From an uncultured virus (IMG/VR IMGVR_UViG_3300028920_000066) (lineage: Duplodnaviria; Heunggongvirae; Uroviricota; Caudoviricetes), in the IMG/VR virus record IMGVR_UViG_3300028920_000066: a DNA stretch of 64,000 bases; one strand, 5' to 3'. The position numbers and the translations under genes were made by a program. This document shows positions 361 to 61,461 of this stretch, piece by piece (the first letter of the stretch is position 1; every line of letters starts with the position of its first letter). The notes under the pieces are model-generated. The model worked only from the letters and a program-made list of their open reading frames with translations. It had not been told where the DNA came from and ran no database searches.

Positions 361-728
361 CACCTATACCCCATTTCTTTCTCAAACTTTTCCTTTTCTA
401 TCTCCCCTATCTTCCTACTTGTATCTTGTGCCCATACGGTTTTAGCTACTGAATTGGCTGTCGCTATCTTGAGAGCTTTATCGATTCTCATCTGGTCTAT
501 CCAGTTGAACCCACATATCTTCTGGGTATTCCCCTCGTGCCAGTAAGATAAATGATAAAATCCTGTGCCATTTGCTTTCCAGATAGCAAAGTTTATATCC
601 CTGCATACAGCATAATAACTATTAAACGTCCAGAACCTGTCAGGGTTCTTTAACTCCTTTATCAGTTTATCAGCCGTAGTTTCTGACTTTTTTTTAACTT
701 TTAACCAACTTGGCAACCTGATTATCAT
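360..728 (-). CDS. hypothetical protein
   Basis: 122 aa ORF, stop/start overlaps with both neighbours. Confidence 0.7.
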   Translation of the reverse strand: MIIRLPSWLKVKKKSETTADKLIKELKNPDRFWTFNSYYAVCRDINFAIWKANGTGFYHLSYWHEGNTQKICGFNWIDQMRIDKALKIATANSVAKTVWAQDTSRKIGEIEKEKFEKEMGYR

Positions 729-928
729 TTTGTCAAATCCTTTATATATTTTAAAATATCGTCCCCGTCTATTACCTTAGTCTTCCCATATGTCTTTTCG
801 TTCTGTCTAACCCATTTTCTTACTGCCGTATATATCCGTTTGCCCTCAGCTTTTGCACCCTGATTATATATTTTGTTCTGTTCTGCCCACTCATTATCCT
901 GTTGTATAGCTCTTAATAGATTACCCAT
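725..928 (-). CDS. hypothetical protein
   Basis: 67 aa ORF with AGGAGG RBS. Confidence 0.7.
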   Translation of the reverse strand: MGNLLRAIQQDNEWAEQNKIYNQGAKAEGKRIYTAVRKWVRQNEKTYGKTKVIDGDDILKYIKDLTK

Positions 929-939
929 TTAATCCTCCT

Positions 940-1548
940 TTAGACACACCAAGAACTCAGCTCATCTATTAAATCATCTATCTCTATCTCCCCTTGCTCA
1001 TAATCAGATATCAAATCTTTTAAATCTGACTTGTATACCATTTCCTCGCTTATTTGGTCATCGTGCTGTGAAGCTACTGTTTGCCAGGGCGTGAACTGTT
1101 TACTTATCTTCCCACCCGATACGTGGTCATAGATACAAGCACAATTATGTAATACTACCGAATAATCAAATAATTCCCTCGCTACTGCGTCTTTGTCCAG
1201 CTCCCCGTTCACTTCCACTATCTCAGCCCAGAACTCTTCATACTTTTTCATATAATTCGGTAGCCTGTCAGTTTCTTTAATATGTCCCTTAAGCTCTTCT
1301 TCATCAAAATACTTCTCATCATTACACTCATCCACCATATTATACTGCGTCTTCCCGTCCCAAGCGTCACAAGATTGAAACCAAAATACCTCATCAGGAT
1401 ACTTATCTATCTCATATTTCTGATTTCTTTTTAACTTTAAGTTGTTTGCTTTATCTTCTCCAAACTTTTTTTTAACTTCTGGGGCTATAAATGTATTCGG
1501 AAGCTTCTGACTCTGACTTTTTTTTAACTTTTTGTTATCCTTAGACAT
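940..1548 (-). CDS. hypothetical protein
   Basis: 202 aa ORF with AAGGAG RBS. Confidence 0.75.
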   Translation of the reverse strand: MSKDNKKLKKSQSQKLPNTFIAPEVKKKFGEDKANNLKLKRNQKYEIDKYPDEVFWFQSCDAWDGKTQYNMVDECNDEKYFDEEELKGHIKETDRLPNYMKKYEEFWAEIVEVNGELDKDAVARELFDYSVVLHNCACIYDHVSGGKISKQFTPWQTVASQHDDQISEEMVYKSDLKDLISDYEQGEIEIDDLIDELSSWCV

Positions 1549-1573
1549 TTTTTTAACTCTCCTTGACTTTTTT

Positions 1574-1930
1574 TTAACTTTTTTCCTTTTCTTTACTTAA
1601 ATTAAGTATAAAGTCTTTAACTTTATGAGCTAATTGATAATTTCTGGACTCCCACTCTCCGTTTACATCGTTAAAGAACTTAGAGTTCTTAATATCCTGT
1701 TCCGTCTGAAGATACACGGTGATACTCCCGTTTCCATAATCATCGTGACCTCCACCGTCTTCTGCTAACAAACCATATCCTTTAGCTCTCAGGGTTATCT
1801 TCCCGTCAAAGTTATTAGTTACCTCAAAGTCAACATCGTGAGGAACTCCGATATGCCACCCAAAGTCCTGCCCGTAGACTATCCTGTTACCCTCTTTAAA
1901 CCTCAAGGTCTTCTTAGCTTCTGTTTTCAT
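1574..1930 (-). CDS. hypothetical protein
   Basis: 118 aa ORF in the co-directional gene run. Confidence 0.7.
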   Translation of the reverse strand: MKTEAKKTLRFKEGNRIVYGQDFGWHIGVPHDVDFEVTNNFDGKITLRAKGYGLLAEDGGGHDDYGNGSITVYLQTEQDIKNSKFFNDVNGEWESRNYQLAHKVKDFILNLSKEKEKS

Positions 1931-3408: not shown

Positions 3409-3786
3409 TCAATTCAAATTTCTTAGATTTTTTTCAAAATTCTTTTTTAACTCCTCAGCCATTTCTAAAATCTGGTCTTCAGAATAATCTGAGTTATTCC
3501 TCATTATCTCCAGAACATCGTCTAAAAGTTCTGGCAACATAGCTTTAAATTTTTTCTGTATCTTAACTTTTTCTGACAAACATTTGATATTACTATGAAC
3601 CTCTTTCTTTAATGCTTTCACATCACGCTTGTCTTCTATTACAACAGCTAAAGCCTGAAAGATAGTTAAGAACCTTTCTTCATCAGTCTTTCCGTCATCT
3701 GCCTTTATTAACTCCATTAGTGCTTCCTGTGTCTTTTCCTGAAACTTTCCCAGCTTTTCGATATATTTATCTTCTAATTCACTCAT
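3409..3786 (-). CDS. hypothetical protein
   Basis: 125 aa helical ORF. Confidence 0.7.
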   Translation of the reverse strand: MSELEDKYIEKLGKFQEKTQEALMELIKADDGKTDEERFLTIFQALAVVIEDKRDVKALKKEVHSNIKCLSEKVKIQKKFKAMLPELLDDVLEIMRNNSDYSEDQILEMAEELKKNFEKNLRNLN

Positions 3787-3977
3787 CGTCTACTCCTTTT
3801 TTTTGCTGTTCTCTTCTTTCCTATTGTTGAACTACCTGAACGACTTACACTCATTGAAAAATCATTAGGGGATTTAAACATATCCTTTTTACAGCTCTTA
3901 CAATATTTACTGGCTTTTGACTTAGCTTCATATGTTTTTCCACAAATATCGCACTCCAGCTCTACTATTTTGCCCAT
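3783..3977 (-). CDS. small zinc-ribbon protein
   Basis: CDIC...CKSC. Confidence 0.65.
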   Translation of the reverse strand: MGKIVELECDICGKTYEAKSKASKYCKSCKKDMFKSPNDFSMSVSRSGSSTIGKKRTAKKRSRR

Positions 3978-4471
3978 AACTTTTCCATTTCTGCCTTATA
4001 TTTTTTAATAATATCTGAATTTGTTATCCTTATAAGGTTTTCATAATTGTTTTCCTCAGCACCTTTAGTAAAATTATAGCTACCAGTATAAAGCACAACA
4101 TTATCTATAATAAGAACCTTATTGTGCATAATCCCACCGTGAGCCCCACGCATTATCTTTACTTTATAACCTTTAGCTAACAACTCATCTATCTGACTAT
4201 ACCTACCTGCACTCTGAATCTTATCTGCAATTATCCTGATAGTTACTCCCCTACTCTTCGCACGATATATAGCTTCTACTATATCCTTTGAAGTCAGGGA
4301 ATAAATCATACAATCAAGAGATACACCAGCCCCGTCTATATCTTTAATTAAATCTACACTACAATGATTGGGTGAGAAACACGCAGAGATATCTGGTGTC
4401 TGTGGACAAGTAACACACCCTGTAAACATTACCACAAAAGCCAAAATTACAACTATTCCTAATCTCCTCAT
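3965..4471 (-). CDS. phospholipase D-family (Nuc-like) nuclease with lipoprotein signal peptide
   Basis: single HKD motif MHNKVLIID...GSYNFT; N-terminus MRRLGIVVILAFVVMFTG-C is lipobox-like. Confidence 0.85.
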   Translation of the reverse strand: MRRLGIVVILAFVVMFTGCVTCPQTPDISACFSPNHCSVDLIKDIDGAGVSLDCMIYSLTSKDIVEAIYRAKSRGVTIRIIADKIQSAGRYSQIDELLAKGYKVKIMRGAHGGIMHNKVLIIDNVVLYTGSYNFTKGAEENNYENLIRITNSDIIKKYKAEMEKLWAK

Positions 4472-4482
4472 TTATTTCCTCC

Positions 4483-4695
4483 TTAGCTATCTACTTTAGT
4501 AGTTTTATATATCTGAACTTCTGTTTGTTCTACCATAAACTTCTGACCACACCCCTCACACTTGGCTATTCCCATAGTGACAGCACCCTTTGTTATAGGT
4601 GACGCTTCTAATTTTACCGACCTAATATCTTTATAATCTTTACCACAATGAGGGCATTTAACTCCCTCCGTTCTGTATCCTTGAGGTAGCCCCAT
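4483..4695 (-). CDS. small zinc-finger protein (MGLPQGYR...)
   Basis: CPHC...CEGC; ATG at 4693-4695 just after the recA stop with a GGAGG RBS. Confidence 0.65.
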   Translation of the reverse strand: MGLPQGYRTEGVKCPHCGKDYKDIRSVKLEASPITKGAVTMGIAKCEGCGQKFMVEQTEVQIYKTTKVDS

Positions 4696-9567: not shown

Positions 9568-9633
9568 AACTTCACCTCTCCTGTTTAAGTGCCCGTCCCT
9601 GTAGTTGGACACCGAATATCTATCTTGTATATA

Positions 9634-9662
9634 ATCTTATCAAATTTATAAGTTCTTGTCAA
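9634..9662 (-). promoter_or_regulatory. sigma70-type promoter of the Ro60/Y-RNA/groES unit
   Basis: TTGACA (9662-9657), 17 bp, TAAGAT (9639-9634) with extended -10 TG. Confidence 0.8.
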
Positions 9663-9696
9663 GTTTTTTTTTCATTTTTTTTAATTTTTTTTGCCT

Positions 9697-10722
9697 TTAT
9701 TTATTAGTGTTTTTTAGAACCCCTAAAAGCTTTTCTCTTTTTTTCTTTAAAAAGAACAACCTACCACGTCTTCTATTTCTCTCTTTTCTTATTTGTTTAT
9801 CTTTATTCTTCTTCCAATTATCTTTTGAATTTTTTCTTTGCTTCTCTTTATGTTCTTCTATTTCTTTTTTTGAAAGCTTTCTTTTCTTACGTTCTTGTTT
9901 GTGTTCCTTGTGCCATTCACTTAAAACACTAACAGCGTGGTGCAATTTGAGGTGTTCCTGATTAACAGCATAATGCAATCGATTATAACATTTATTCTTT
10001 ATCTTATTAACAAACTCCCTAATTTCTTTACTTTGCGACTTTATTTTTTTAACCTGTTCCTTATCCATCAAAAACTTATACAAAGCTATAACGTCTTTTA
10101 TATCTGCCGAGTCTACTAAGAACAACATATTCTTTTTATTACTAAAATTATCTTTTGCTTTCTGTAAACTCCAAGCTTTAATATCTGAAGATTTTTCAAC
10201 AACTTCATTAACGCTACGGTTCTGCGTATTCTCCTTTAGATATTTTTTCATTTCCTCAAGCACAGACAACTTATTATCCTTATTAAGAATAAAATAAAAC
10301 GTCTTCATAAAATATTTATAGTTACAAACAACAGGGTCTTTCTTACAATCTATATCTTCTTTATCCCCAAACAACTTCTCCATATCTTTAGTTGTCACCT
10401 GATATTTTCCCGTAATTGCATCATAACCTTTATTAAAAGCCTCAATGTTAATTCTATCGTTCTTATCTTTCTTTATCTCATTATTAACAAATGTATACAA
10501 TCTTTTCAATACGTCAACTTTATCTTCCAGATACTTATTTATATCTTCCCTCAATTCCTTTCTATATTCAACCCTCTCTTTTTTCTTTGCCATACGCTCT
10601 TCATATTCTTCAGGGTTTAATATACTTTTCTTCCTATTAGAAATCTTCTTTAATTCCCCCTCTTCCTTTTCAATTTCTTGTTCGCACCTTTTTAATTCTC
10701 GCTGTGCCTCTTCATAGTTCAT
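9697..10722 (-). CDS. hypothetical charged coiled-coil protein
   Basis: 341 aa Lys/Glu-rich ORF. Confidence 0.7.
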   Translation of the reverse strand: MNYEEAQRELKRCEQEIEKEEGELKKISNRKKSILNPEEYEERMAKKKERVEYRKELREDINKYLEDKVDVLKRLYTFVNNEIKKDKNDRINIEAFNKGYDAITGKYQVTTKDMEKLFGDKEDIDCKKDPVVCNYKYFMKTFYFILNKDNKLSVLEEMKKYLKENTQNRSVNEVVEKSSDIKAWSLQKAKDNFSNKKNMLFLVDSADIKDVIALYKFLMDKEQVKKIKSQSKEIREFVNKIKNKCYNRLHYAVNQEHLKLHHAVSVLSEWHKEHKQERKKRKLSKKEIEEHKEKQRKNSKDNWKKNKDKQIRKERNRRRGRLFFLKKKREKLLGVLKNTNK

Positions 10723-11079
10723 TTATCTTTCCTCCATTCTGGATTCAATTATGTTCTCAATTCCTTTTTGGTCTAACACACCTGACACTACAGCCCTAAC
10801 CTTATTATCTTTATTGATAAACAAAGTGCTTGGTATCTTATCTATTCCTAAAATAACCCGTGATACCTTTGCTACTTTATCTTTATCAACGTTATATATT
10901 CTACATAACATTGTCTTTCCGTCAGAGTTCTTAACGTCCATTTTTATCAACTCATCTGTATACTCTTTACAAAACTTACAGCCATCAGCTATTAACACTA
11001 CAAGCTTCTCTGTATTATCAGCCAATATCCCTTTAACCTCTTCTATATCTTTTTTCATTTGTTCCATAACTTGTTTCAT
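10723..11079 (-). CDS. thioredoxin-like protein
   Basis: GCKFC redox motif and IPST cis-Pro segment. Confidence 0.8.
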   Translation of the reverse strand: MKQVMEQMKKDIEEVKGILADNTEKLVVLIADGCKFCKEYTDELIKMDVKNSDGKTMLCRIYNVDKDKVAKVSRVILGIDKIPSTLFINKDNKVRAVVSGVLDQKGIENIIESRMEER

Positions 11080-11558
11080 ATCTCATCTTCATCCAGACTA
11101 TAATTTGTTTTCTTTACTTTAATATCTTTCTTACAACCCCTACATTTTTTCTCAGCTTTCTTAACACGCTTAGGCAAATTTAATTTATCCCCAAGCCAAG
11201 ACCAAAAGTTTATATCATAAACTTCTATCATTTTTCGCATTTCATCAACGTCATTATTAAACCCATAAGTAGCATTTTGCTCTACAGCCTCTATCATATG
11301 AATCCTTGTAGAACAATAATGTTTTATATAACACCAATAATTTTTAAATTCTTCCATACGTTTGTTTGAAATTTTATAAGATAAACCAAGAATAGCAAAT
11401 AACTTTTGACCCACTTCAGACCTTTGTTGTCTTAAATTTTTAAGCAACTTCGGAGTAAGTTTATAGGTATCAGACCACATACATATATGCTCTATCTGGC
11501 AAGTTATATGCCCTATAATTGCAATATACTCGTCAGCCATCTCGTATCTGTTTTTCAT
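11076..11558 (-). CDS. hypothetical protein
   Basis: 160 aa ORF with GAGAGGA RBS. Confidence 0.7.
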   Translation of the reverse strand: MKNRYEMADEYIAIIGHITCQIEHICMWSDTYKLTPKLLKNLRQQRSEVGQKLFAILGLSYKISNKRMEEFKNYWCYIKHYCSTRIHMIEAVEQNATYGFNNDVDEMRKMIEVYDINFWSWLGDKLNLPKRVKKAEKKCRGCKKDIKVKKTNYSLDEDEI

Positions 11559-11581
11559 AGTCCTCTCATTTCCTTGTTTTT

Positions 11582-11658
11582 TGGTGACGCATAAGGGATT
11601 CGAACCCTTGATAACCTGATAGAAAGTCAGGTGGCTTAGACCACTTGCCCAATGCGTC
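11582..11658 (-). tRNA. tRNA-Glu(TTC), CCA encoded
   Basis: GACGCAT/ATGCGTC acceptor, CCTGA-CTTTCTA-TCAGG anticodon arm, AAGGG-TTCGAAT-CCCTT T arm. Confidence 0.9.
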
Positions 11659-11685
11659 CCATACTCTTCCTATCTTTGTAACTAC

Positions 11686-11714
11686 ATTATATGATTTTTT
11701 TAAAGGTTTGTCAA
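11686..11714 (-). promoter_or_regulatory. consensus sigma70 promoter upstream of tRNA-Glu
   Basis: TTGACA (11714-11709), 17 bp, TATAAT (11691-11686). Confidence 0.88.
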
Positions 11715-11760
11715 GCAGTTTTTTACATTTCTTTAATAAAACTTAGGGGCTTTAAAAGAG

Positions 11761-12223: not shown

Positions 12224-15200
12224 TTACCACTTCCAAATAAATTTTTTCACATCAATATCTTTTATCCTATCGTTTAAAGAATTGCTTGTATCCTCTTTAG
12301 GCTTATCTTTTAATATCCTATTCTCGTCACCAATATACTGACGCTTCAAGGGTTTATCTTCTTTTATACTACCATCTCCAGTTTCTTCTACAGAAAGGTC
12401 TGCTATATCCTTTACAAGAGTATCGTCTTTAAGAAGCTCCTTTATTTTTTCTTTAGTTGTTTTACTTTCTAACTGACTTAATTTGTCTTTTTTCTTTTTC
12501 TTTTTATTCTTTTTAGGCTTTAAGTATTGCATTACATTATCTATATTCCACCTAAAATAATGTTCTTGTGCAGTATTATCTTCTTCACTACCATCATAAA
12601 CTTCTGTGCTCATCATATTAGCTTTTATATCAAACCTTTCGTCCTTTGGATTTATATAATAAAAATCATTTAATATAAATTCAGTATCTGGTTCTACACC
12701 CATTCCTGCTTCTGGCAAAACAACACTCCCAGGCTTACCGTCCAATTCTTTACAAGCTTCTTTTGTCACATAGGCTAACGTAATATGTGGTTTATAATCT
12801 TTATATGTTGTAATATGTTCAAATTTATCCGAAACATTTTTATGTAGTTTATGTAAATCCTCTGATTCTACTTCTATGATAATCACATCATATGGTTTCT
12901 GGTCATCAGAAAATCTTGATAAATTACCAAATTTTATATTAACAGGATTTACCAAACCTAATATCTCATCTGCATTATGTTCTTTTAAACCATATAAAAC
13001 TGTAGCGTGTATTTCGTTTTCACGACCAAAACCTTTTTCTTCAACATATAAATCTTCATCTTTAATAGTCTGTTTAGCAAAATTTCTTATACGTTCAGCT
13101 ATTTCTATAGGTAGCTCTACCATTAAACACCCATATTTTTCTTCTGCACATATTGAATGTTTTATATTAGCTTCCACTACGTCTTTATTAAATGTAGTTA
13201 CTGCTATCTTATGTATAGCGTCCCTAAAAGCTCTTTCGTCTTCTTCCCAAGCGTCATCATTTTCATCGTCTATATATAAATTATTCTTTTCCCAAGTATC
13301 CGAACATAATTCTATATGAACCTGTTCTCTTTCGTCCTCAAATTTTTGCCAATCTTTTGTAGACCATCCACCCAAAACTATATCGGCATACTTCTTTAAT
13401 AAGTCCATATCTATTTTAAGCTCTCCATTATCAAACATCTTAACATATTCATCAACCTTATACCCCGTCACGTCTTTAACCTGCGTAGATTCTTTTATCA
13501 TTGTTTCTGAGTGCTCTGGATACTTATTCTTTTTAAATCCCATACCCTTATACCATTTCTGTAATTTTTTCTTATTACCACCAAAATCTCCTGACGGAGT
13601 AAGCGTTACAACAAGACCGTGCTCTTTGGCATAATCAAGAACTAAATCCATTACTTGTGTGCCTATACCTTGTTGCCTTTCTTCTTTAGGAACAAGTATT
13701 TTATTAACCGTTATAGCTTTCGTGCTTGGGTGATAAGTAGTCCACAAAGTCACATTAGGATATTTCTCTTCTACTAACTTATCCAACTCCTCTATATTAA
13801 CCTCCGAAGAGTTTACACCTTTTTTATTAAGAGTTTTTATACTCAAGTCTATCCTAAAATCATTATCTTTAAATTCATCCCACGTATTATAAATAAGTTT
13901 ATCTCCATAATCCATAACAATAAAATCTTTTGGTGCATATTCTGTTATCAATTCTTCAGCTTTTGTAAGGTCTACCCCAGCCTTACATTCAATGTTAGCT
14001 GTTTCTTCATAAAACCAAAACCTTATCCAACCGTCACGTATCATATTATTAAATGTTTCTGAAGTTGTCGAACCTATTTGTGTATACTTTTTAACAATAT
14101 CTAAATTTTCGTCTATCCACCAGCTATGCGTTTCAGGAACTCCCTCATTCCTAATATTAAAATCTGTGCCATCAGGGGCTATCCAATAAGCACTTCCTAC
14201 CGCGGCATAAACATATCTTAAATTACTTGCTGGTTGTTCAAACATATCCTTTACTCCCCACACCTTAACGTCTTTACCCTCATAAGTTTTCTCTTCTATT
14301 TTATTTACTGCTGTTAGTTTTCCAAGCGTCACAGGTTTATCATCTTCTAACTCGTTTTCTAAAAATTTATCTAAAGCGTCAAAATCTGTTTTTGAACTAA
14401 ACATCACATTAGTTCCATAACTCCATTTTCTTATACGAGCCCAACCACCTACAACCATTCTATCTAATATATCAAATGGACTTGCTTCATACATATCATA
14501 CTTTTCATATACTTCTATGTCCTTATTAGAAAGATATGGTTCAACGTATTCCATATTTTCAGCTTCCAAAACCCATTCTGCGTGAACGTCCCCCACTTCT
14601 ATTACTTCTCCTTTAGGTGTTATAAACCACCCAGCTATCATCTCTGCCTTTATTTTGCTACCAAATATTTTATCCCAAGTAGTATTATAACTTTTATTTA
14701 AAGTTAAGTCTTGCAAATTATAACTATCCATTATAATACTATCACCACTTTTTCCAATGTCCCCCATTAAAGGTTTTATTTTTTCTATAGCGTCCTTTCT
14801 ATTCCCATAATAATTGACACCCCAATAATTCATATCGCTTAATCTTACAGCTATCCAACCGTCTTTTAACATTTCTGCTATAACATCAGCAAGAGCATAA
14901 TACATTTTATTATCATATAGTTTTATCTTTTTATTATTAACCATATCCATCTGTTCATCTGTAAAATATTGTGACAACTCTTCAGCGTTGTCATATATCC
15001 AAGCTCTATGGTCATCCTTGCCCCATTTACCCAATTTAATATATGAGCTATCAGGCTTTACCCAATAGCCCTGACCTGGCATATCAGAAGCTTTTACATT
15101 ACTTTGTATCTCTTCCAGCCACGTTGTCTTATCTTCTAAATTTTTCTTACCCTCGTCAATGACCTTATATAAAAAGTAATAATCGTGATTATCTATATCA

Positions 15201-17080
15201 AATATTTCATAGTTGCCATAATTCTCGGTTATCTTTATCTTTGTGCCTACTGGAAGTTCTTTATATAATATAACATCTTCTATATCATATGGGTCATCTG
15301 GGTCTGGCTCTGGGTTCTCCCCCCAATAATGAACCATTAACGGTTTAGTTACTTCTACCATCGTGCTACTTGCTTTTACATATTCTTCTTCTATCATTCC
15401 TGTTATCGCAAGTCTTACTGCGTGATTAACATCAGGAATTTCTCCAAAGTCACTATAATCAGCCATATCTAATTGGCTTAAAAGACCGTGCTCTTCTAAA
15501 AGGGTCATAAGCCATTCAATATTACCTGCCGTTGCTTTACTTGTGCCTACTCCTAACAGTTCTGATAAATATTCGTGCTGAGTTTCTCTTTCATAATCAT
15601 CACTTAATCCCTTTTCAACTTTCTCTATTATCTTTTTATATTTATAAAACTCTTTCCAAAACTTTTTCCAATTAACTTTTGGAAATTCTTGGTTCTTTAT
15701 TAAGCTTTCTATAAAAGAAAAAGCGTCTTGTCGTGATGATTTAACTTTCTTGTGGTCTTCTACTATCTTATTTATCTTTTTTAATATTGCTTTACCCCAT
15801 TTACCATTATAAGGAACATTAACTGCTCGGTCATCAAGAAATACTAATGCTGTAGAAGATTTCTCATTTGTTATCTTATCATAAGGCACTTCATTCTTAT
15901 CCAGCAACTTCTTTATCTTATCCCTGTCCTCTTTACCTCTGGCTGTGAATATAACTATCTTCCAACCATCTTCTTTTAACTCCTTTAATATCTTCACATT
16001 TTCTTCTATTAAATCTTTTGAACCAGTATAAGGATAATTATCAACAGCAAGAGTTCCGTCAAAATCTATACAGATTTCTTTCTTTCCAGCATTGATTATA
16101 ATCTTTGATTTTATATCTTTAATAAACTGCAACGCATAACCGTGAACAGCGTCCCTTAAAGGTTCTGTCAATACAGCGTCATATATGTGTTGATAAGGGC
16201 TATCTTCACCTATAAGTTCATTATAAAGAGCCTCATTGTTTTCTATAATCCACATCACTAACTCTATATGTTTATCGCTTCTTAACTGGTCGAATTTTTC
16301 AAACTCATCATCAGAAGCCTTTTCTACATTTTTAACAGCATTTACATAATCTGTTAATAATTTTTCATCAACTTTAAGTTCACCACGATTAAGTCTATAT
16401 TCATAATCTTCTACCTTTTTCTTATGCTCTTCATAATTACCTATCACAGACAGACTGTGAACCTCATACATAAACTGGTCAAAGTCTTCGCCAAAGAACT
16501 CGGCTGGAATTTGGTCAGCCATTTCAAATATTTGCTGGTCAGTAAGATTAGGGTTATTTTTCTGAATATTGATTTTTAATTCGGTGTGTAATCTTTGACG
16601 TTCCTTTTCAAGCTCTTCTAAAAGTTCTACATTATATTTAGAGTTCATCATATTATTAAGGTGTGTAAGATATTTATTAAGAACTTCCTCATCTATCTTA
16701 ATATCGCTTATGGTTATTGCCTTACCATAAACATTACCAAATGCGTCTTCTACATATTCATAATCTTTAAGTGCATCTTCCACAACAAACTGTTTAGCAT
16801 AATGATGCACAGCGTCCCTAAAATCTAAATCATCTAAATCATATTGTTTGTTTAGTTCTGGATTTAATCTCAAAAAAGCTTCCGTAAGTTTGTCGTGTAG
16901 GTCAACTCTATGTAAATCTATTATGATAAGTTCTTTTGTGTTATATTCTTTTTTAGCATAATCGTTTTCTTCTTGCCAAACAGAAATATATTCTTCTAAT
17001 TCCTTTTCTGGGATTTTTATTTTATTACTGTTTAGTTTTCGTAAAATTTGTTTACTATTAGAAGTTATTTTATTTTTTAG
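12224..17080 (-). CDS. polyvalent protein: helical repeats, HAD phosphatase, three W-x-x-P-x-G repeats, GNAT, Acb1-like 2H phosphoesterase; probably the -1 frame continuation of the GGDEF gene
   Basis: frame is open from 17080, upstream of the tracked TTG at 16873; DFDGTL/FTARG/FLDDRAV, VPKEERQQGIGT, HATVLY...HITLAY. Confidence 0.85.
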   Translation of the reverse strand, partial: LKNKITSNSKQILRKLNSNKIKIPEKELEEYISVWQEENDYAKKEYNTKELIIIDLHRVDLHDKLTEAFLRLNPELNKQYDLDDLDFRDAVHHYAKQFVVEDALKDYEYVEDAFGNVYGKAITISDIKIDEEVLNKYLTHLNNMMNSKYNVELLEELEKERQRLHTELKINIQKNNPNLTDQQIFEMADQIPAEFFGEDFDQFMYEVHSLSVIGNYEEHKKKVEDYEYRLNRGELKVDEKLLTDYVNAVKNVEKASDDEFEKFDQLRSDKHIELVMWIIENNEALYNELIGEDSPYQHIYDAVLTEPLRDAVHGYALQFIKDIKSKIIINAGKKEICIDFDGTLAVDNYPYTGSKDLIEENVKILKELKEDGWKIVIFTARGKEDRDKIKKLLDKNEVPYDKITNEKSSTALVFLDDRAVNVPYNGKWGKAILKKINKIVEDHKKVKSSRQDAFSFIESLIKNQEFPKVNWKKFWKEFYKYKKIIEKVEKGLSDDYERETQHEYLSELLGVGTSKATAGNIEWLMTLLEEHGLLSQLDMADYSDFGEIPDVNHAVRLAITGMIEEEYVKASSTMVEVTKPLMVHYWGENPEPDPDDPYDIEDVILYKELPVGTKIKITENYGNYEIFDIDNHDYYFLYKVIDEGKKNLEDKTTWLEEIQSNVKASDMPGQGYWVKPDSSYIKLGKWGKDDHRAWIYDNAEELSQYFTDEQMDMVNNKKIKLYDNKMYYALADVIAEMLKDGWIAVRLSDMNYWGVNYYGNRKDAIEKIKPLMGDIGKSGDSIIMDSYNLQDLTLNKSYNTTWDKIFGSKIKAEMIAGWFITPKGEVIEVGDVHAEWVLEAENMEYVEPYLSNKDIEVYEKYDMYEASPFDILDRMVVGGWARIRKWSYGTNVMFSSKTDFDALDKFLENELEDDKPVTLGKLTAVNKIEEKTYEGKDVKVWGVKDMFEQPASNLRYVYAAVGSAYWIAPDGTDFNIRNEGVPETHSWWIDENLDIVKKYTQIGSTTSETFNNMIRDGWIRFWFYEETANIECKAGVDLTKAEELITEYAPKDFIVMDYGDKLIYNTWDEFKDNDFRIDLSIKTLNKKGVNSSEVNIEELDKLVEEKYPNVTLWTTYHPSTKAITVNKILVPKEERQQGIGTQVMDLVLDYAKEHGLVVTLTPSGDFGGNKKKLQKWYKGMGFKKNKYPEHSETMIKESTQVKDVTGYKVDEYVKMFDNGELKIDMDLLKKYADIVLGGWSTKDWQKFEDEREQVHIELCSDTWEKNNLYIDDENDDAWEEDERAFRDAIHKIAVTTFNKDVVEANIKHSICAEEKYGCLMVELPIEIAERIRNFAKQTIKDEDLYVEEKGFGRENEIHATVLYGLKEHNADEILGLVNPVNIKFGNLSRFSDDQKPYDVIIIEVESEDLHKLHKNVSDKFEHITTYKDYKPHITLAYVTKEACKELDGKPGSVVLPEAGMGVEPDTEFILNDFYYINPKDERFDIKANMMSTEVYDGSEEDNTAQEHYFRWNIDNVMQYLKPKKNKKKKKKDKLSQLESKTTKEKIKELLKDDTLVKDIADLSVEETGDGSIKEDKPLKRQYIGDENRILKDKPKEDTSNSLNDRIKDIDVKKFIWKW

Positions 17081-18240
17081 TTTTTTTTTCTACTCTCTAT
17101 TTCTTTTGGCGTTTCGTCATCACAAGTTTCACACTCTTCATTCTTCGTCAAATCCTTGCCGTCATCTGTGTGAGCCTCACAATCCATACCCTCTTCATAT
17201 TCCACTACCATATCACGCCCACCCTCTTTAGCACAATATAAAGCTTTGTCCGCTTCTTTAAATACTTCTTCTGTGCTTTCAGTTTCTTCATAGCCCGTGA
17301 ACCCAATTGATACAGAAATATTAAACCCATTTTCAAACTCAAGTGTTTTAACTTTTTCTCTTAATTCGTCAAGAAAAACTTCTGCTGTCACACTATCATC
17401 AGCAGGTAATAATAATATAAATTCTTCCCCTCCCCACCTGAAAGCAATTGTTTCTTTGTCCAGCATACCACCTAAAGCCTTAAGCACTTCATCCCCCACA
17501 TCGTGCCCATAAGTGTCATTAACGTCTTTAAAATGGTCTACGTCTATGATTGCAAAATACAAAGACTCATCGTCTAAATCTTCTACCACTAAGTCAAAAG
17601 CATTACGATTATATAATTGAGTAAGATTATCTCTCAAAGCAAGGTCTTTCCAATATTCAATATCTTTATCTTTATCTTCATTCTTTATGTTCTGCTCGTT
17701 CTCTTCGTCAGCTTTAATGTTCTCTAAAACTCTATACTTATCTTCACCTAAATATTGTATGTTGATATATGATTTATCTATTATATTAGTAGCGATAGTT
17801 TTGTCACCACCACCTCGCCAATCTTCTACCTGATATCCAAGCTCTGCTAACTCAAGTTCAGAATATACTTTGTTTGCACACACCAAGTTTCGTGCATTAG
17901 CTTCTTCGATTGTTTCCTCTATGATAGCTTTCTTCTCTGGGTCTTTTTCTGTTTTAAGCATATCCTCTAATTCACATACCGTATGCTCTATTAAAAACTC
18001 AAAATATTTATAAGACTCTTCTTCGGTCATATTAGATTTCACCTTTTTAATATGGTATCGTGGTTCTTCTGCTTCATCTTCTCGAATTGTTTTATCTCTA
18101 CTTCTCATACTCGGTTGAAACTCATCTAATAATCTTAAATAAACAGTATCTCCACCAGAACGAGTAAACCTTTCACGTATTCTATAGTCTATACCGTCAT
18201 AGTTAATATAATTTCCAGGGTCGGTATTTTTAGCTTTCAT
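17077..18240 (-). CDS. GGDEF diguanylate cyclase with N-terminal unknown domains
   Basis: DNLTQLYNR, IIDVDHFKDVNDTYGHDVGDEVL, RWGGEEF, ADKALYCAKEGGRD. Confidence 0.92.
   Translation of the reverse strand: MKAKNTDPGNYINYDGIDYRIRERFTRSGGDTVYLRLLDEFQPSMRSRDKTIREDEAEEPRYHIKKVKSNMTEEESYKYFEFLIEHTVCELEDMLKTEKDPEKKAIIEETIEEANARNLVCANKVYSELELAELGYQVEDWRGGGDKTIATNIIDKSYINIQYLGEDKYRVLENIKADEENEQNIKNEDKDKDIEYWKDLALRDNLTQLYNRNAFDLVVEDLDDESLYFAIIDVDHFKDVNDTYGHDVGDEVLKALGGMLDKETIAFRWGGEEFILLLPADDSVTAEVFLDELREKVKTLEFENGFNISVSIGFTGYEETESTEEVFKEADKALYCAKEGGRDMVVEYEEGMDCEAHTDDGKDLTKNEECETCDDETPKEIESRKKN
17080..17089 (-). other. A9 slippery site (AGA AAA AAA AAC TAA), putative -1 frameshift
   Basis: A AAA AAC heptamer in frame 0; the -1 frame has TAG immediately before the run and is then open for about 4.9 kb. 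Confidence 0.75.
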
Positions 18241-18258
18241 CTATTCCTCCAGAGTTGC

Positions 18259-18285
18259 CTTTATAAAATAGAAATATATAACTAA
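18259..18285 (-). promoter_or_regulatory. 27-bp conserved intergenic motif, copy 1 (putative phage-specific promoter)
   Basis: minus strand TTAGTTATAT-N5-TATTTTATAAAG just upstream of the RBS of the GGDEF gene. Confidence 0.7.
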
Positions 18286-18312
18286 AAAGAACAGGGGTAG
18301 ACAAGCTACCCC
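18284..18312 (-). terminator. intrinsic terminator
   Basis: GGGGTAG-CTTGT-CTACCCC followed by TGTTCTTTTT. Confidence 0.6.
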
Positions 18313-18354
18313 CATTCCACCCTCTAATCCTCTTTCATCCCCTTAAACCTACTG

Positions 18355-18588
18355 TTAAAAAGGACTCTTTTTTATCTTTGTTGTATCTACTTCTTGGTCT
18401 TTATCGTAGATACCTATGTCGTTCTTACAATCAGGGCAGAATAGACCGAACCTTTGCCCGTCTATATTCTGCTTTTCTACCTGATTCCACGTCAGCCATT
18501 TTTCTTCCTGTTCTGTCGTGCAGGTTTTACACCTGAAAATCTTCTCATCAGGAATCTCGCTAATCTTCTTAATGTTTTCGTCACCCAT
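18355..18588 (-). CDS. small zinc-binding protein
   Basis: CKTC...CPDC, AGGAGG RBS. Confidence 0.7.
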   Translation of the reverse strand: MGDENIKKISEIPDEKIFRCKTCTTEQEEKWLTWNQVEKQNIDGQRFGLFCPDCKNDIGIYDKDQEVDTTKIKKSPF

Positions 18589-21128: not shown

Positions 21129-21755
21129 CTACACTTTTATTTTATACAGAGATAACACTTCAGTTAAGTCGTCTGCTATTTCACGATACTTCTTTTCAGG
21201 TAACCTTTTCTTAAGAACGCCTCTTATAATTATCAATAACTTACTCAACTCTTCTTTTAAAAACTGTTTATGTTGATTGCTCTCCATCATCGTAAGCTTC
21301 ATTTTATCTTCTTTTTCTATAATGTCAGCCAAAACTTTCTGTTGATTCAATAAAAGAGCGTCCATCTCAGCTATTATCCTTTGAGGGTTTCGGGTTTGTT
21401 CATTTACAACTGCTGTAATTCTCTCAACCCCTATCTTTCTCAGCCACTCCATAACTGCCGCTTTATTTTTATAATCCACAACGTTCTGTGGCATATTTGT
21501 AAAATTATTTACCATACTATTATCTTGCTTACTGGGAACTTCTACTTTTGCAGGAATAAGAATATCAGACTTTCTGCTTTCTTTCAGCCCGTCTAAATAT
21601 TTTCTAAGCTCTTTAATGTTAAACTTTATATCGCCTTTATAATATCTCTTTATATATTTCATTATATCTTTTTCGTCTAAGTCTTCAAACTCCATAAGCA
21701 TAGCCACATCATACAATATGCTCTTAGGCAAAAGATATATTTCTTTAATACTCAT
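21129..21755 (-). CDS. hypothetical protein
   Basis: 208 aa ORF. Confidence 0.7.
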   Translation of the reverse strand: MSIKEIYLLPKSILYDVAMLMEFEDLDEKDIMKYIKRYYKGDIKFNIKELRKYLDGLKESRKSDILIPAKVEVPSKQDNSMVNNFTNMPQNVVDYKNKAAVMEWLRKIGVERITAVVNEQTRNPQRIIAEMDALLLNQQKVLADIIEKEDKMKLTMMESNQHKQFLKEELSKLLIIIRGVLKKRLPEKKYREIADDLTEVLSLYKIKV

Positions 21756-22591
21756 TATGTCCAGAACTCCTTTTGTGTTTTATTATGAATTTTTCTTATT
21801 TTTTTTGCTAAACGTCTTATTTCTAAAGTTATATATACCTGAGTAGTTTCTAATAATCTTGCTATATCCGTAACCCTTATTCCTAATAATAATAACGCAC
21901 ATATTTTTTTTTGATTCTCTGTGAGGTTTTTAAAATAATATTTATAAAAAATAGAAAAATCAAAAATTCTATCATATAATTCAAATCCATTTTGATATTG
22001 TTTTAACGGTCGGGTGCTTGGAAGAAAAATTCCGTTCTCATCTATATCGTTTAAGTGTTCATTTTCCGTTTCGGAAAATCGTTCATCTCTATCTATACGC
22101 TCGTCTTCCATATAAATAAGATTATAATCTCTCTCGAAAAATACAGTTTCATTCTTTTTATAAAAATACTGAAGCATATGTAAATTATATTTTAATTTAT
22201 ATCTTTGTTTCTTTATATAAAGACAATAATAAGCAGGTTCTACTTTTCCACTCTTACGAGTAATACTACCAATTTTTTTCAATCTAAAATCATATTTACT
22301 TATTTCTTTAATAGGCTCAGGTTTAAAATCTCCAATATTATAATTCCAAGATTTCAGTTTAACTTTTTGATACGAACCGTCAAATTTTCTTCCTATTCTT
22401 TGTAAATAATATTTACTTATTTTAAATTTAAAATCATTAAAATCTATAGGACACTCTGTTATAATATAATAATCAAACACAGAAAAACTTATGTTTTTCT
22501 TTTTAACAAAACTTATAAACTTATTTAAAATATAATCATTCGGAACAGCATAACAAAAACCCTCAACCATAAGCATTTCACCCTCAAACAA
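21755..22591 (-). CDS. sigma-factor-like protein (C-terminal region-4-type HTH)
   Basis: LTENQKKICALLLLGIRVTDIARLLETTQVYITLEIRRLAKKIRK. Confidence 0.6.
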   Translation of the reverse strand: MFEGEMLMVEGFCYAVPNDYILNKFISFVKKKNISFSVFDYYIITECPIDFNDFKFKISKYYLQRIGRKFDGSYQKVKLKSWNYNIGDFKPEPIKEISKYDFRLKKIGSITRKSGKVEPAYYCLYIKKQRYKLKYNLHMLQYFYKKNETVFFERDYNLIYMEDERIDRDERFSETENEHLNDIDENGIFLPSTRPLKQYQNGFELYDRIFDFSIFYKYYFKNLTENQKKICALLLLGIRVTDIARLLETTQVYITLEIRRLAKKIRKIHNKTQKEFWT

Positions 22592-40224: not shown

Positions 40225-40253
40225 ATGTTATCACGAAGTTAAAAAAAAGTCAA
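40225..40253 (-). promoter_or_regulatory. sigma70-type promoter overlapped by a TGAC-T8-AACT motif
   Basis: TTGACT (40253-40248), 17 bp, TG-A-TAACAT. Confidence 0.65.
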
Positions 40254-57390: not shown

Positions 57391-57650
57391 TTACCTCTTA
57401 TTTTTCTTTCTACTTTGAGCCATAGCCATTAACTCTTCAAAACTTATATCTCCAGCGTCATATTCAACACTCTTATCTCCAATAGCGTCTTTCATAGCTT
57501 TTTCTTCTAACTCAATATCATATTCCATATTACCAACACACCAAGCTATTTGTGACGGAGTGAGTTTAAGCAGTTCTGGGTCATTAGGCAACTTGTGTAA
57601 GTTTTTACAAATCAGCCAAAAAGTTCTACTGTATCTATCTTTTATTGTGC
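57391..57650 (-). CDS. tail assembly chaperone, -1 frameshift extension (GT-like)
   Basis: the -1 frame after the A9 run reads STIKDRYSRTFWLICKNLHKLPNDPEL... into the tracked 66 aa ORF. Confidence 0.8.
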
Positions 57651-58070
57651 TTTTTTTTTAACCTGAGAGAACTTTTTAGAAACCTCATTTTCATACTGTG
57701 TGATAAGACCAGAAATAACACCCTCACCAAGTCCTTTTAATAAATCTTCTATTTCTTCAGACTTTTTGGCAGGAAAAGTCTTACCTTTAACAGTAGCACT
57801 TACTAAAGCTTTAGAAATTTTTAACACGTTAAGAGTATTGGTATAGACATTTGGAGAACCTGTAATAAGAACACCACGTTTTTCCATTTCGTTGTCTATA
57901 TCTTCTAAATCTTTCTGTGTCAATTCTCTTAGGGTGAACTCTACGTCTTTGTTAATTTGCAAAGTAAACTCCATATTTCCTGAAATAAGTCTTCTTAATT
58001 CAGTAATATTAAGTTCTGTTCCTAACTCTTCACCCTGTCCGTTCACGTCTACTTCAATTTTCTTCTCCAT
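57642..58070 (-). CDS. tail assembly chaperone (G-like)
   Basis: FTLRELT motif; between tube and tape measure; ends GTT AAA AAA AAA GCA CAA TAA. Confidence 0.8.
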   Translation of the reverse strand: MEKKIEVDVNGQGEELGTELNITELRRLISGNMEFTLQINKDVEFTLRELTQKDLEDIDNEMEKRGVLITGSPNVYTNTLNVLKISKALVSATVKGKTFPAKKSEEIEDLLKGLGEGVISGLITQYENEVSKKFSQVKKKAQ

Positions 58071-59313: not shown

Positions 59314-61461
59314 TTATTGCTGTATTGTAGCCCCAAAAGTTACAGATATCCAGTTCAGGTCAAACGTAGGTCTGAACAAGAACCTTATATCTAATTGTCT
59401 TGGGTCATTTTCATTAAATTGAATTTCAACGTTCTGATATCCAGCAATAGTCCCTGTATTAACTTTTTCAGTTAATATCAAGTTTATAAAGCTGTCAGCA
59501 ATCGCAAGTATATTCTTACCATTGTTTATTATCCTTACATTGATAAGTGTTGAAGAAAGAGTTCCTCTTAATGTCTTTTTAAGGTCGTCTATCTGTTTGA
59601 TTACTTTTAATTCACTATCAATAATATCGTCTACCTTAGTTGAAAGATAATGAATTATTTTATAATCAACACCTTGCTTTTCAGTCACGATAGCACCGTT
59701 GCCACCAAGAGTTCTTTTTTCTTGTCTTAAATATGGGTCATCAATATAATCAAATAATAATGTTTTACCACTTATTGGCTCACCAGCGTCATAGTTTGGA
59801 TTAGTTATTAACCCAGCTATAGCTGAAGCTATATAGCTTCCGTCTAATTGCCCAAGTCCTGTTATTCTTGCATATGGGCTTGATACAACGCCAACTCTTG
59901 CGTCTTTAATTCCTGTTGTAAGATTAACAACATCTTGGAAGTCGGTTATTGAGGCTTTTACGCCAAATAGAGCCATTCTTTCTTGTTTAGTGGTTACTCC
60001 ATTCATTTCATTAAGATAAGATTTTATGTAGCTTACAATTGAATCATTTTCATCTACACCTTTCATATATACCATACACCATCCCTGAAATCCATTTACC
60101 AATTCTTTTGTATTATCAATAGCTTTTCTCATATTGTTGTCGTCAACAATGTCTTCTTCACTTTGGCTACCCATAAAAAGAGTTGCACCGTGATTTTGAG
60201 CTATTGTTGAAGCTATTGAAATTTCAGATTCAGGTCCGTTTTTAATTGAAATGTCAGAAGTTTCATCAAGAACTTCTGAAAGAACTGGTGCTACGGTAAC
60301 ATCATTTGTGTCATCGTCAATAGCCATTATTACTCTTATTTGACCCTCTCCCGTTCCACCTGTTACTTTAATGTAATTCCCTGCCGATAAACCTGAAAGG
60401 TCTGTCTTAGGTAAAATGTCAAATGTTGAGGTAGCGTCTGGGGCGGTTGCCAATGCAGGAGATACTGTAATATTATCTCCAGTATCGTCTACGTCTGTAA
60501 CAATACTTGTTTCACCAGAACCTGTTCCAGCAGTTCCAACATAATAATCACCAACATTTATATCCGACAAGTCAGGAGAACCAGTAACATTAACAACAGT
60601 TGTTGTTGAAGTTCCAGTAGCTGTTCCTGAAAAAGTTGGGGTTGCTGATGAAGGACCTACTTTAATATTAGTTGTTGTGTTGCCAAAACTATAAGCTTTC
60701 CCTGAAACTATTTCTGTTGGAATAGCATATGCACCATACTCAGCGTAAACGTCTTCAAGTCTTGAGAAAAGCTTAGGAACATATTCAGAAGAAAGTTTTA
60801 ACCTTTTGTATACAATTGTATATGTTTGACCCTCTGCTGGTTCTTTACTTATTATTTTCTGACCTTGAACATAACCTAAATCAGCTAATGAAGAACCACC
60901 CTCAATTATAACCAAGTCACCAGTAATTTTAATATATTCTTCTGAACCTACAGTTTCTTTTGTTACAGGAGTATCTGTTGTTCCTGACGCAGTTTGATAA
61001 TCTGCATTTATCTGGTCAATTACACCAGAACCACCGTCTATAACTATAGGGTCTGTTCCTGTAAATGTGACAGTAAATGTTGTTGAATCAATATTTAATT
61101 TTAAAGTTTTACCGTTCACGTTATATCCTGAACTTCCATCTGCTGTATTAAGCAGGTCTTGTGGCTGATTCCAATCAACGTAATAAGCTCCTCCACTTTC
61201 TATAAGCTTATAATCCACGTCCTTTGTATAAATAATATTGTTTGAGTCGCTGATACTCAAAATTTTAACAACAGTATATTCATCTGTTATTAAATCTGTA
61301 TCAAGATTTGTCCTTTCAATTCCTGCTGATATATCGTATTCCTTTCTTCCCAGACCAACAAAGATAGGAATAAATGTCCCTCCTGTTACATTAGGTGCTG
61401 GAACGTTCTCTATCTTAATATAAACTCCTGGTTCAACATACTGGTTTGTGAAACTTGGCAT
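59314..61461 (-). CDS. contractile tail sheath protein
   Basis: N-terminal YVEPGVYI, C-terminal DPRQLDIRFLFRPTFDLNWISVTF. Confidence 0.9.
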   Translation of the reverse strand: MPSFTNQYVEPGVYIKIENVPAPNVTGGTFIPIFVGLGRKEYDISAGIERTNLDTDLITDEYTVVKILSISDSNNIIYTKDVDYKLIESGGAYYVDWNQPQDLLNTADGSSGYNVNGKTLKLNIDSTTFTVTFTGTDPIVIDGGSGVIDQINADYQTASGTTDTPVTKETVGSEEYIKITGDLVIIEGGSSLADLGYVQGQKIISKEPAEGQTYTIVYKRLKLSSEYVPKLFSRLEDVYAEYGAYAIPTEIVSGKAYSFGNTTTNIKVGPSSATPTFSGTATGTSTTTVVNVTGSPDLSDINVGDYYVGTAGTGSGETSIVTDVDDTGDNITVSPALATAPDATSTFDILPKTDLSGLSAGNYIKVTGGTGEGQIRVIMAIDDDTNDVTVAPVLSEVLDETSDISIKNGPESEISIASTIAQNHGATLFMGSQSEEDIVDDNNMRKAIDNTKELVNGFQGWCMVYMKGVDENDSIVSYIKSYLNEMNGVTTKQERMALFGVKASITDFQDVVNLTTGIKDARVGVVSSPYARITGLGQLDGSYIASAIAGLITNPNYDAGEPISGKTLLFDYIDDPYLRQEKRTLGGNGAIVTEKQGVDYKIIHYLSTKVDDIIDSELKVIKQIDDLKKTLRGTLSSTLINVRIINNGKNILAIADSFINLILTEKVNTGTIAGYQNVEIQFNENDPRQLDIRFLFRPTFDLNWISVTFGATIQQ

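Follow-up and report, generated by a model that had tools for sequence, protein, structure and literature searches.

A run of nine adenines as a candidate slippage junction between a diguanylate cyclase and a giant multi-enzyme protein in an uncultured phage

The shift that yields the tail-assembly chaperones is the canonical and conserved frameshift of phages, and among insertion sequences the frameshifting of IS1 uses an A6C motif. The -1 shift of the lambda gpG/gpGT pair (Xu, Hendrix and Duda, in PMC5009743) is described together with the use of frameshifting by IS1 and IS3 (PMC5009743), and the same source describes runs of nine A or T as sites of efficient RNA polymerase slippage in vivo, used as such in dnaX of Thermus (PMC5009743). 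In tssM1 of Citrobacter rodentium, a run of 11 adenines before a stop codon is described as giving two length variants of TssM, with the full-length form at 20-25% (PMC4256274), and GGDEF, 2H and GNAT are listed among the domains of the polyvalent proteins (Iyer et al. 2017, PMC5512222). Here we describe a locus of the uncultured virus IMGVR_UViG_3300028920_000066 (Caudoviricetes), in which the open reading frame (ORF) of a GGDEF diguanylate cyclase ends on a run of nine adenines (A9) and is followed, in the -1 frame, by a giant ORF for a multi-enzyme protein. All positions are those of the stretch of 64,000 nt that was analysed, hereafter the window, in which all genes lie on the minus strand. 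The reading that we favour, to which we give a probability of about 0.6, is that the phage uses slippage on A9, by RNA polymerase and/or the ribosome, so that the locus would yield both a 387-aa cyclase and a 2005-aa fusion.

The 387-aa ORF is a GGDEF diguanylate cyclase, the product nucleotide being a prediction. Its match to PF00990 covers residues 201-343 (E 1.3e-31, 110 bits against a cut-off of 23.8; Pfam), and the GG[DE]EF active-site motif is intact in the translation (RWGGEEF). Its 3' end reads ...GAG AGT AGA AAA AAA AAC TAA, and the A9 run with the heptamer A AAA AAC that the sequence-only reading had reported there is present at 17089-17080. Starting at the first A of the run, the -1 frame has no stop for 1621 codons and reaches down to 12224. 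As had also been claimed, a TAG stands just before the run and the frame then reads through without an ATG into a TTG: the first ATG, GTG or TTG is the TTG at 16873, codon 73, and the first ATG is codon 147. The TTG is thus preceded by 72 start-less codons, 69 of them after three Lys codons. The fusion length proposed earlier, about 2005 aa, agrees with the sum of 387 and 1618 residues.

This geometry leaves little room for a junction elsewhere. With the -1 frame opening at the TAG just before the run and the 0 frame ending one codon past it, A9 is the sole place where the two frames can join; TAG and TAA together limit any frame change that would join the ORFs to a span of 16 nt, and both slippery heptamers (X XXY YYZ in the 0 frame) lie inside it. 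Only four A9 runs occur on the coding strand of the 64-kb window, one of which covers this joinable span, and such a placement is unlikely to have arisen by chance. The run is also of the kind on which transcriptional slippage is expected, a homopolymer of about nine or more A or T at which one added base restores the downstream frame: with ten adenines (A10) the message would read AGA AAA AAA AAA CTA..., directly into the 1621-codon frame. We also considered that the TAG might be read as sense, with the -1 frame reaching a start further upstream; this was ruled out, as two TGA codons lie 8-9 codons further up with no start between.

The 203-bp gap between the two called ORFs is coding in the -1 frame, as had been proposed from the sequence, and this conclusion is borne out by composition, by repeat structure and by predicted fold. 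Codon log-odds, with 43 other long ORFs from the window as the training set, gave +27.1 for the 72 codons in the frame of the giant ORF, to be compared with a mean of 38.2 (standard deviation 10.8, 5-95% range 20.9-55.8) for genes read in frame, while the other two frames of the stretch gave -79.0 and -101.3, just as genes do when read off-frame. Expressed per codon, the stretch scores +0.42 and has no stop, against -0.04 to -0.91 in the best frame of true intergenic stretches, which do carry stops. It is also the largest start-less extension among the 65 ORFs of at least 100 aa, for which the median is 4 codons and the next largest value 37. The helical repeat said to recur downstream proved real and is present in four copies, each with the motif [IL]K[IV](D/P)E..L..Y, then H.(E/D)L and then RDA[VI]H, the first of these motifs lying at open-frame residues 24, 130, 238 and 1224. 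A profile made from the N-terminal halves of copies 2-4 alone matched the 72 upstream residues with 9.1 bits, a score reached in 3 of 1000 composition-preserving shuffles; on the other five frames of the same DNA it scored -0.7 or less in four and found no match in one. The match is in register and collinear with the RDAVH helix on the downstream side of the TTG. When copy 1 was modelled by AlphaFold2 with the four module copies as the alignment, the predicted local distance difference test score (pLDDT) was 83.4 and the predicted template modelling score (pTM) 0.77, with helices at residues 16-34, 39-63 and 76-87. The TTG at 16873 corresponds to model residue 61, within helix 39-63, so that a start at this codon would cut the helix. 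Foldseek found no match to the module model in the PDB at E ≤0.001.

A credible initiation site for the giant ORF itself is lacking. Strong Shine-Dalgarno sites are usual in this phage, in which 53 of the 65 long ORFs start with ATG, typically behind AGGAGG, and the median energy of the ribosome-binding duplex in these 53 ATG genes is -8.2 kcal/mol. The TTG at 16873 has GGAAG 5 nt upstream, worth -3.5 kcal/mol, a value that is matched by 28% of random positions and that is equally weak in 4 of the 53 ATG genes. None of the 15 ATG, GTG or TTG codons in the first 401 codons of the open frame does better than -6.3 kcal/mol, the ATGs having essentially no site, and the near-cognate codons in the gap lie between 0.0 and -0.9 kcal/mol, except for the ATT at codon 35, at -5.6. 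No promoter-like or terminator-like site was found within 16874-17076, and the 9 promoter-like matches in 16500-18500, where 8.1 were expected, all fall outside the gap. Given a strong hairpin of the intrinsic-terminator type just upstream of the cyclase gene (Table 1) and the lack of any such site in the gap, the cyclase and the giant ORF are probably carried on one transcript and share one transcription unit. The hairpin marks a transcription-unit boundary.

Comparison with relatives bears on which of the two products is the older. Searching with the cyclase for longer relatives led to the protein P0007 (682 aa, E 8e-103) and from it to L008, a metagenome contig of 6.9 kb in which four genes keep the order of the window at 43-54% amino acid identity; the contig ends 109 nt past the matched region and is the sole syntenic relative found. 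The order of cyclase and giant gene is conserved in it. Its cyclase (3671-4627, 318 aa) shares 51% identity over 311 aa with that of the phage, and the two proteins end in ...KNDACETPTMSDEDEEELGG in L008 and ...KNEECETCDDETPKEIESRKKN here, each directly before its stop codon. After the conserved KN[DE]xC motif the tail measures 17 residues in the phage cyclase, against 15 for L008 and 5 for P0007, and in the alignment the stop of L008 lies at most 2 residues from ours. Because the L008 and P0007 cyclases end at the homologous place, the TAA of the phage cyclase is most simply read as the ancestral stop and not as an accidental off-frame one. The giant gene of L008 starts right after the cyclase stop, with AGGTGG, a spacer of 4 nt and an ATG in the arrangement TAAATG, and its Met aligns at about residue 328 of the open frame, where the HAD domain begins; at the same position the phage frame reads ATT ATA ATC, with no ribosome-binding site. 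By this alignment the giant gene would have gained about 327 N-terminal residues, comprising three helical modules, which are specific to this phage and come without an initiation site, and it looks as though the gene has lost its own start. The comparison with related genomes that the sequence-only reading had called for has thus delivered a homologous cyclase stop and a giant gene with its own ATG, and no second genome with the same junction.

The cyclases of L008 and P0007, the closest relatives, represent a phage-borne GGDEF subfamily with a conserved Cys/His-containing acidic tail after the domain, E.GM(D/E)..C.AH...G.L.KN..C, and P0007 holds two such GGDEF units in one protein; a search of viral_contigs with P0007 gave no match. 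At more distant GGDEF loci (L001-L006), which are 29-44% identical in the domain, the cyclases stand alone or are fused in other ways, and these loci are uninformative on the junction.

In the mechanism that we envisage, ordinary decoding would end at the TAA and give the 387-aa GGDEF cyclase, while a fraction of expression events would shift by -1 within A9 and give the 2005-aa fusion, in which the cyclase would be followed by three helical modules, an HAD phosphatase, a triple uncharacterised domain, a GNAT acetyltransferase, the fourth helical module and an Acb1-like 2H phosphoesterase. Two routes are conceivable: in one, RNA polymerase would add an A so that the message carries A10, and in the other the ribosome would move back by one base on A AAA AAA or A AAA AAC. 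Residue 387 of the fusion would be Lys with an A10 message or a slip on A AAA AAA, and Asn with a tandem ribosomal slip on A AAA AAC. Of the two, transcriptional slippage seems to us the likelier, perhaps joined by some ribosomal slippage, because a run of nine A suffices for RNA polymerase, no convincing stimulatory RNA structure is seen and A_AAA_AAC is a comparatively poor ribosomal site in E. coli. As the giant ORF lacks a credible initiation site, it would be expressed chiefly or solely through slippage, and the slip would hold the fusion at a fixed low level relative to free cyclase, as in this phage's own tail-chaperone pair, G/GT. All that the earlier proposal of programmed slippage predicted at the level of sequence holds, L008 adds to its support and on indirect grounds the proposal is well supported, whereas we infer the slip itself, its efficiency, the machine that slips, the programmed status of the site and the function of the fusion.

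That this phage also shifts on A9 in its tail module had been claimed from the sequence, and the site found at 57651-57659 has the same geometry. Here the 0-frame stop lies 2 codons past the run and the -1 frame continues for 88 codons to the ribosome-binding site of the next gene, an extension that matches phrog_4988, 'tail assembly chaperone' (E 6e-6). The 142-aa ORF stands downstream of the sheath gene (59317-61461) in the tail module, and in position and frame arrangement the pair has the characters of a tail-chaperone G/GT. The 88-codon extension also matches phrog_1316 (1.5e-9), labelled 'RNA polymerase beta subunit', which is probably a mislabelled family. For the 142-aa ORF itself there was no family match, Pfam giving nothing for the tail-module ORFs, and no relative in viral_contigs; nor has the tail-chaperone site any downstream structure (z -0.1). 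Besides the junction and this site, the four A9 runs include an intergenic one and one at 21904-21912 (-) inside an ordinary ORF of 278 aa (21755-22591), 51 codons before its stop, where the -1 frame would run for 42 codons; no sign of recoding was seen at this run, and slipped transcripts would yield an alternative C-terminus. Among the 15 A8 runs, none has the geometry of a stop soon after the run and a long -1 frame.

Several results weigh against slippage at the junction. The tolerance of long A runs is one of them: since an A9 stands inside an ordinary ORF and both the polymerase and the helicase gene hold A8 runs, such runs are evidently carried without a recoding role. No convincing stimulator of a ribosomal shift follows the site: the 60 nt after it fold no better than shuffles (z -0.04), the only structure in the 90 nt after it is a weak A/U-rich stem of 8 bp that begins 16 nt beyond the site (-8.4 kcal/mol, z -3.3), and no Shine-Dalgarno-like element at dnaX spacing was found near the site, where a GAGAG stands 6 nt upstream of the heptamer; A_AAA_AAC is moreover described as less shift-prone than A_AAA_AAG in E. 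coli (PMC5009743). By Smith-Waterman alignment the 72 residues show no significant similarity to the rest of the protein, 94 of 500 shuffles scoring as high, and it is their Lys/Glu-rich composition that keeps the alignment from beating the shuffles. In L008, the only syntenic relative, the two genes are ordinary cistrons. The helical N-terminal region found only itself in 5.8 billion protein clusters and in 1.84 billion representatives (HMMER); no relative of the junction or the N-terminal modules came from blastn against phages, a protein scan of viral_contigs or the ESM Atlas; exact 31-mer scans of metagenome_contigs and viral_contigs were empty; and an alignment of the giant protein with its L008 relative matched nothing in viral_contigs or genome_contigs. 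A second genome with the same N-terminal extension or junction was accordingly not found by these searches.

The length of a homopolymer is a classic weak point of assembly, and were the true sequence A10, the locus would hold a single ordinary ORF of 2005 aa. We regard such an error of assembly or sequencing as very improbable. The Logan contig of run X1, which is probably the source sample, (55,153 nt, mean depth 59) is identical to the window over 16500-17700, with no differences and no gaps and thus across the run; the 387-aa protein is identical in JGI, Logan and ENA, and in the ENA contig (78,181 nt) the 1549-aa ORF differs by one substitution and by the L/M notation of its start. The gene callers in all three sources split the locus into 387 aa and a TTG-started 1549 aa. 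The TAA that an A10 would bypass stands in frame at the homologous stop position, and the tail-chaperone run was likewise read as nine, which makes biological sense. The three assemblies possibly derive from the same reads, so their agreement argues against an assembler artefact and not against minority genotypes, and run length was compared at the level of contig consensus, where minority A8 or A10 genotypes would not show.

A change of one nucleotide in the phage itself is a somewhat better rival and still an unlikely one. A once-continuous 2005-aa ORF, with A10 or another frame relation, would have been split by an indel that was not corrected, phase variation between A9 and A10 included, and the fusion would now arise by incidental slippage rescue or the giant gene would be decaying. 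Homopolymers are hot spots of mutation, the gene lacks close relatives that would show whether the site is conserved, and heterogeneity of the population would go unseen in a contig-level comparison. That the tight span between the two stops is only weakly unusual, 14.6% of simulated 1-nt deletions leaving 21 nt or less, counts for an indel and also against slippage. Against an indel stand the homology of the TAA to the L008 and P0007 stops, since it would otherwise be a chance off-frame stop (density 0.10-0.14 per codon), the organisation of L008 as two genes and not one fused ORF, the 1621 codons that are still open with normal codon usage, and the A9 consensus both at depth 59 and in a second assembly that has a substitution. 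That the cyclase and the giant gene are simply independent strikes us as decidedly improbable. In that case the giant protein would start at the TTG, or by reinitiation after the TAA at a near-cognate codon such as the ATA at 17068, and the 72 codons would be left over and untranslated. TTG is a permitted start codon with at least a GGAAG before it, no weaker than the sites of a few ATG genes, the L008 genes are separate and translationally coupled, and the gene callers agree on two ORFs. The 72 codons, however, score as coding in exactly the frame of the giant ORF and fit the module profile, the TTG would interrupt a helix predicted with confidence and binds the ribosome no better than more than a quarter of random positions do, nearly all near-cognate codons of the gap are weaker still, and the presence of A9 on the only joinable span would be a coincidence of the order of 1 in 1000 (estimated from 4 runs in 64 kb and a window of about 20 nt). 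A more far-reaching reading, that the 1621-codon frame is an anti-defence polyvalent gene wholly dependent on recoding, which lost its start and gained three modules, and that A9 sets the dose, relative to free cyclase, of a 2005-aa array of cyclic-nucleotide synthase, cyclic-nucleotide phosphodiesterase, phosphatase and acetyltransferase, is put forward tentatively, as a possibility that we hold a little short of even.

The features of the locus are collected in Table 1. The domain make-up of the giant protein suggests a polyvalent protein, as unrelated HAD, GNAT and 2H domains and repeated uncharacterised domains stand in one polypeptide. The 2H domain scores above the family cut-offs and has two H-x-T/S motifs, its substrate being a prediction, and the domain with the signature YW.xPxG...GW.R, for which Pfam gave no match, may be a new polyvalent-protein domain. 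The gene lies away from virion genes, and Pfam detected neither an LPD domain in it nor a virion-associated domain such as MuF. Its distant relatives P0003 and P0004 carry LPD22, PBECR3 and ART-PolyVal, and the distant polyvalent relatives P0002 and L007 each have a start of their own and lack GGDEF. A role in counter-defence, for example in degrading host cyclic-nucleotide alarm signals or in making a cyclic dinucleotide, is suggested by the family names.

Table 1. Coordinates of the features of the cyclase-giant ORF locus and of the tail-chaperone site in the window
Feature	Position	Strand	Remarks
Terminator-like hairpin	18288..18318	-	13-bp stem with 6 GC pairs and a T tract; 48 nt upstream of cyclase start
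GGDEF diguanylate-cyclase ORF, 387 aa	17077..18240	-	PF00990, GGEEF motif, strong ribosome-binding site ctGGAGGaatagATG; predicted short product of standard decoding
TAG closing the -1 frame	17090..17092	-	Immediately 5' of the run
A9 run, proposed slip site	17081..17089	-	Exactly nine A; heptamers A AAA AAA and A AAA AAC (17086-17080)
TAA, cyclase-frame stop	17077..17079	-	One codon past the run; homologous to the natural C-termini of relatives
72 start-less -1-frame codons (KKKLKNKITSNSKQ...LTEAF)	16874..17089	-	Coding by composition; includes the first half of module copy 1
Called ORF of 1549 aa, TTG start	12224..16873	-	Remainder of the 1621-codon frame; multi-enzyme 'polyvalent' protein
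Helical module copy 1	16760..17053	-	Spans the TTG, which falls in the second long helix
Helical module copy 2	16424..16735	-	Repeat motifs
Helical module copy 3	16100..16408	-	Repeat motifs
HAD-type phosphatase domain, motif DFDGT	15752..16093	-	phrog_1238 1.2e-16, phrog_415; 54% identity to L008 ORF 4628-6883
Uncharacterised domain in triple tandem repeat, each copy about 145 aa, YW.xPxG...H..W...GW.R	13985..15082	-	Also repeated in P0002 and in the L008 ORF
GNAT acetyltransferase domain	13529..13741	-	PF00583 21.9 bits (cut-off 20.7), PF13508
Helical module copy 4	13175..13468	-	Just before the 2H domain; last helix also in relative P0002
Acb1-like 2H phosphoesterase domain	12755..13021	-	PF23474 33.4 bits (cut-off 27), PF13563 27.7 (cut-off 27); H-x-T motifs HATV, HITL
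Tail-assembly-chaperone pair	57394..58070	-	142-aa ORF ends GTT AAA AAA AAA GCA CAA TAA; A9 57651-57659

The window has a GC content of about 32% and carries genes for a tail sheath, a baseplate, a DNA polymerase, a helicase and SbcCD, and the sole public run that contains the stretch is labelled marine sediment metagenome, no RNA run with it being listed. The family-matched neighbours of the giant ORF are a RusA-like resolvase, the DNA polymerase and SbcCD, with the tail genes at least 30 kb away. Downstream of the giant ORF, 11559-11760 (-) is a stretch of 202 nt without an ORF, between the RusA-like gene and the ORF at 11076-11558, and its score is that of non-coding DNA (-0.20 per codon, with 3 stops in the best frame); the ORF at 11076-11558 has 37 start-less open codons upstream, the second largest such extension in the window. 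Another intergenic stretch, 9612-9697 (-), is very A-rich, with two A8 runs and one A9 run in 30 nt, and lies upstream of a 518-aa RNA-binding-protein-like ORF with a listed GTG start. The 14-mer AGTTAAAAAAAAGT occurs in 5 copies, one of them mismatched, within 900 bp at 686-1579 (-), and again at 40237-40250 (+); 6 matches compare with 0.68 expected, and 6 were reached in 1 of 100 shuffles. Lying partly within the ORF at 940-1548, this could be a regulatory or origin-type repeat.

The mechanism proposed here is of a known kind, and what is new is that it would join two ancestrally separate genes and be the sole entry to a giant multi-enzyme protein. If true, recoding in phages would extend beyond the tail-chaperone and capsid genes and the structural modules, and the slip, instead of supplying a small C-terminal addition, would give the sole access to a giant counter-defence protein. 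A cyclic-dinucleotide synthase would be physically tied to an Acb1-like cyclic-nucleotide phosphodiesterase, and the stoichiometry of a free cyclase and a rare giant fusion would be built in, which gives an idea of how phages might dose costly anti-defence proteins. Because gene callers split the locus into proteins of 387 and 1549 aa, such fusions are invisible in protein databases.

Among the described systems, the lambda gpG/gpGT shift is the one with a counterpart in the same phage, which has such a site on A9. The proposed junction differs from it in that the extension would bring 1618 residues of enzymes, compared with about 90 of chaperone, in that the corresponding parts are separate cistrons in L008, and in that the genes stand beside replication and recombination genes and not in the tail module. 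With dnaX of Thermus thermophilus (9 T/A) and tssM1 of Citrobacter rodentium (A11), as described in PMC5009743 and PMC4256274, it shares a homopolymer of at least nine right before a stop, at which an added A restores the frame; slippage is demonstrated in those genes and proposed here, and in tssM1 the full-length form is ancestral, whereas here the short form looks ancestral. Unlike the bacterial A-rich heptamers described in PMC5009743 (A_AAA_AAG of dnaX; IS1/IS3), the site has no convincing downstream stem-loop or pseudoknot, and an AAC in the A site is the weaker choice in E. coli. The polyvalent proteins as described by Iyer et al. (2017, PMC5512222) likewise string unrelated enzymatic domains in one polypeptide, which here are HAD, GNAT and 2H, although no LPD signature domain is detected and the gene is not beside virion genes, and the GGDEF domain, instead of being encoded in frame, would be attached through recoding.

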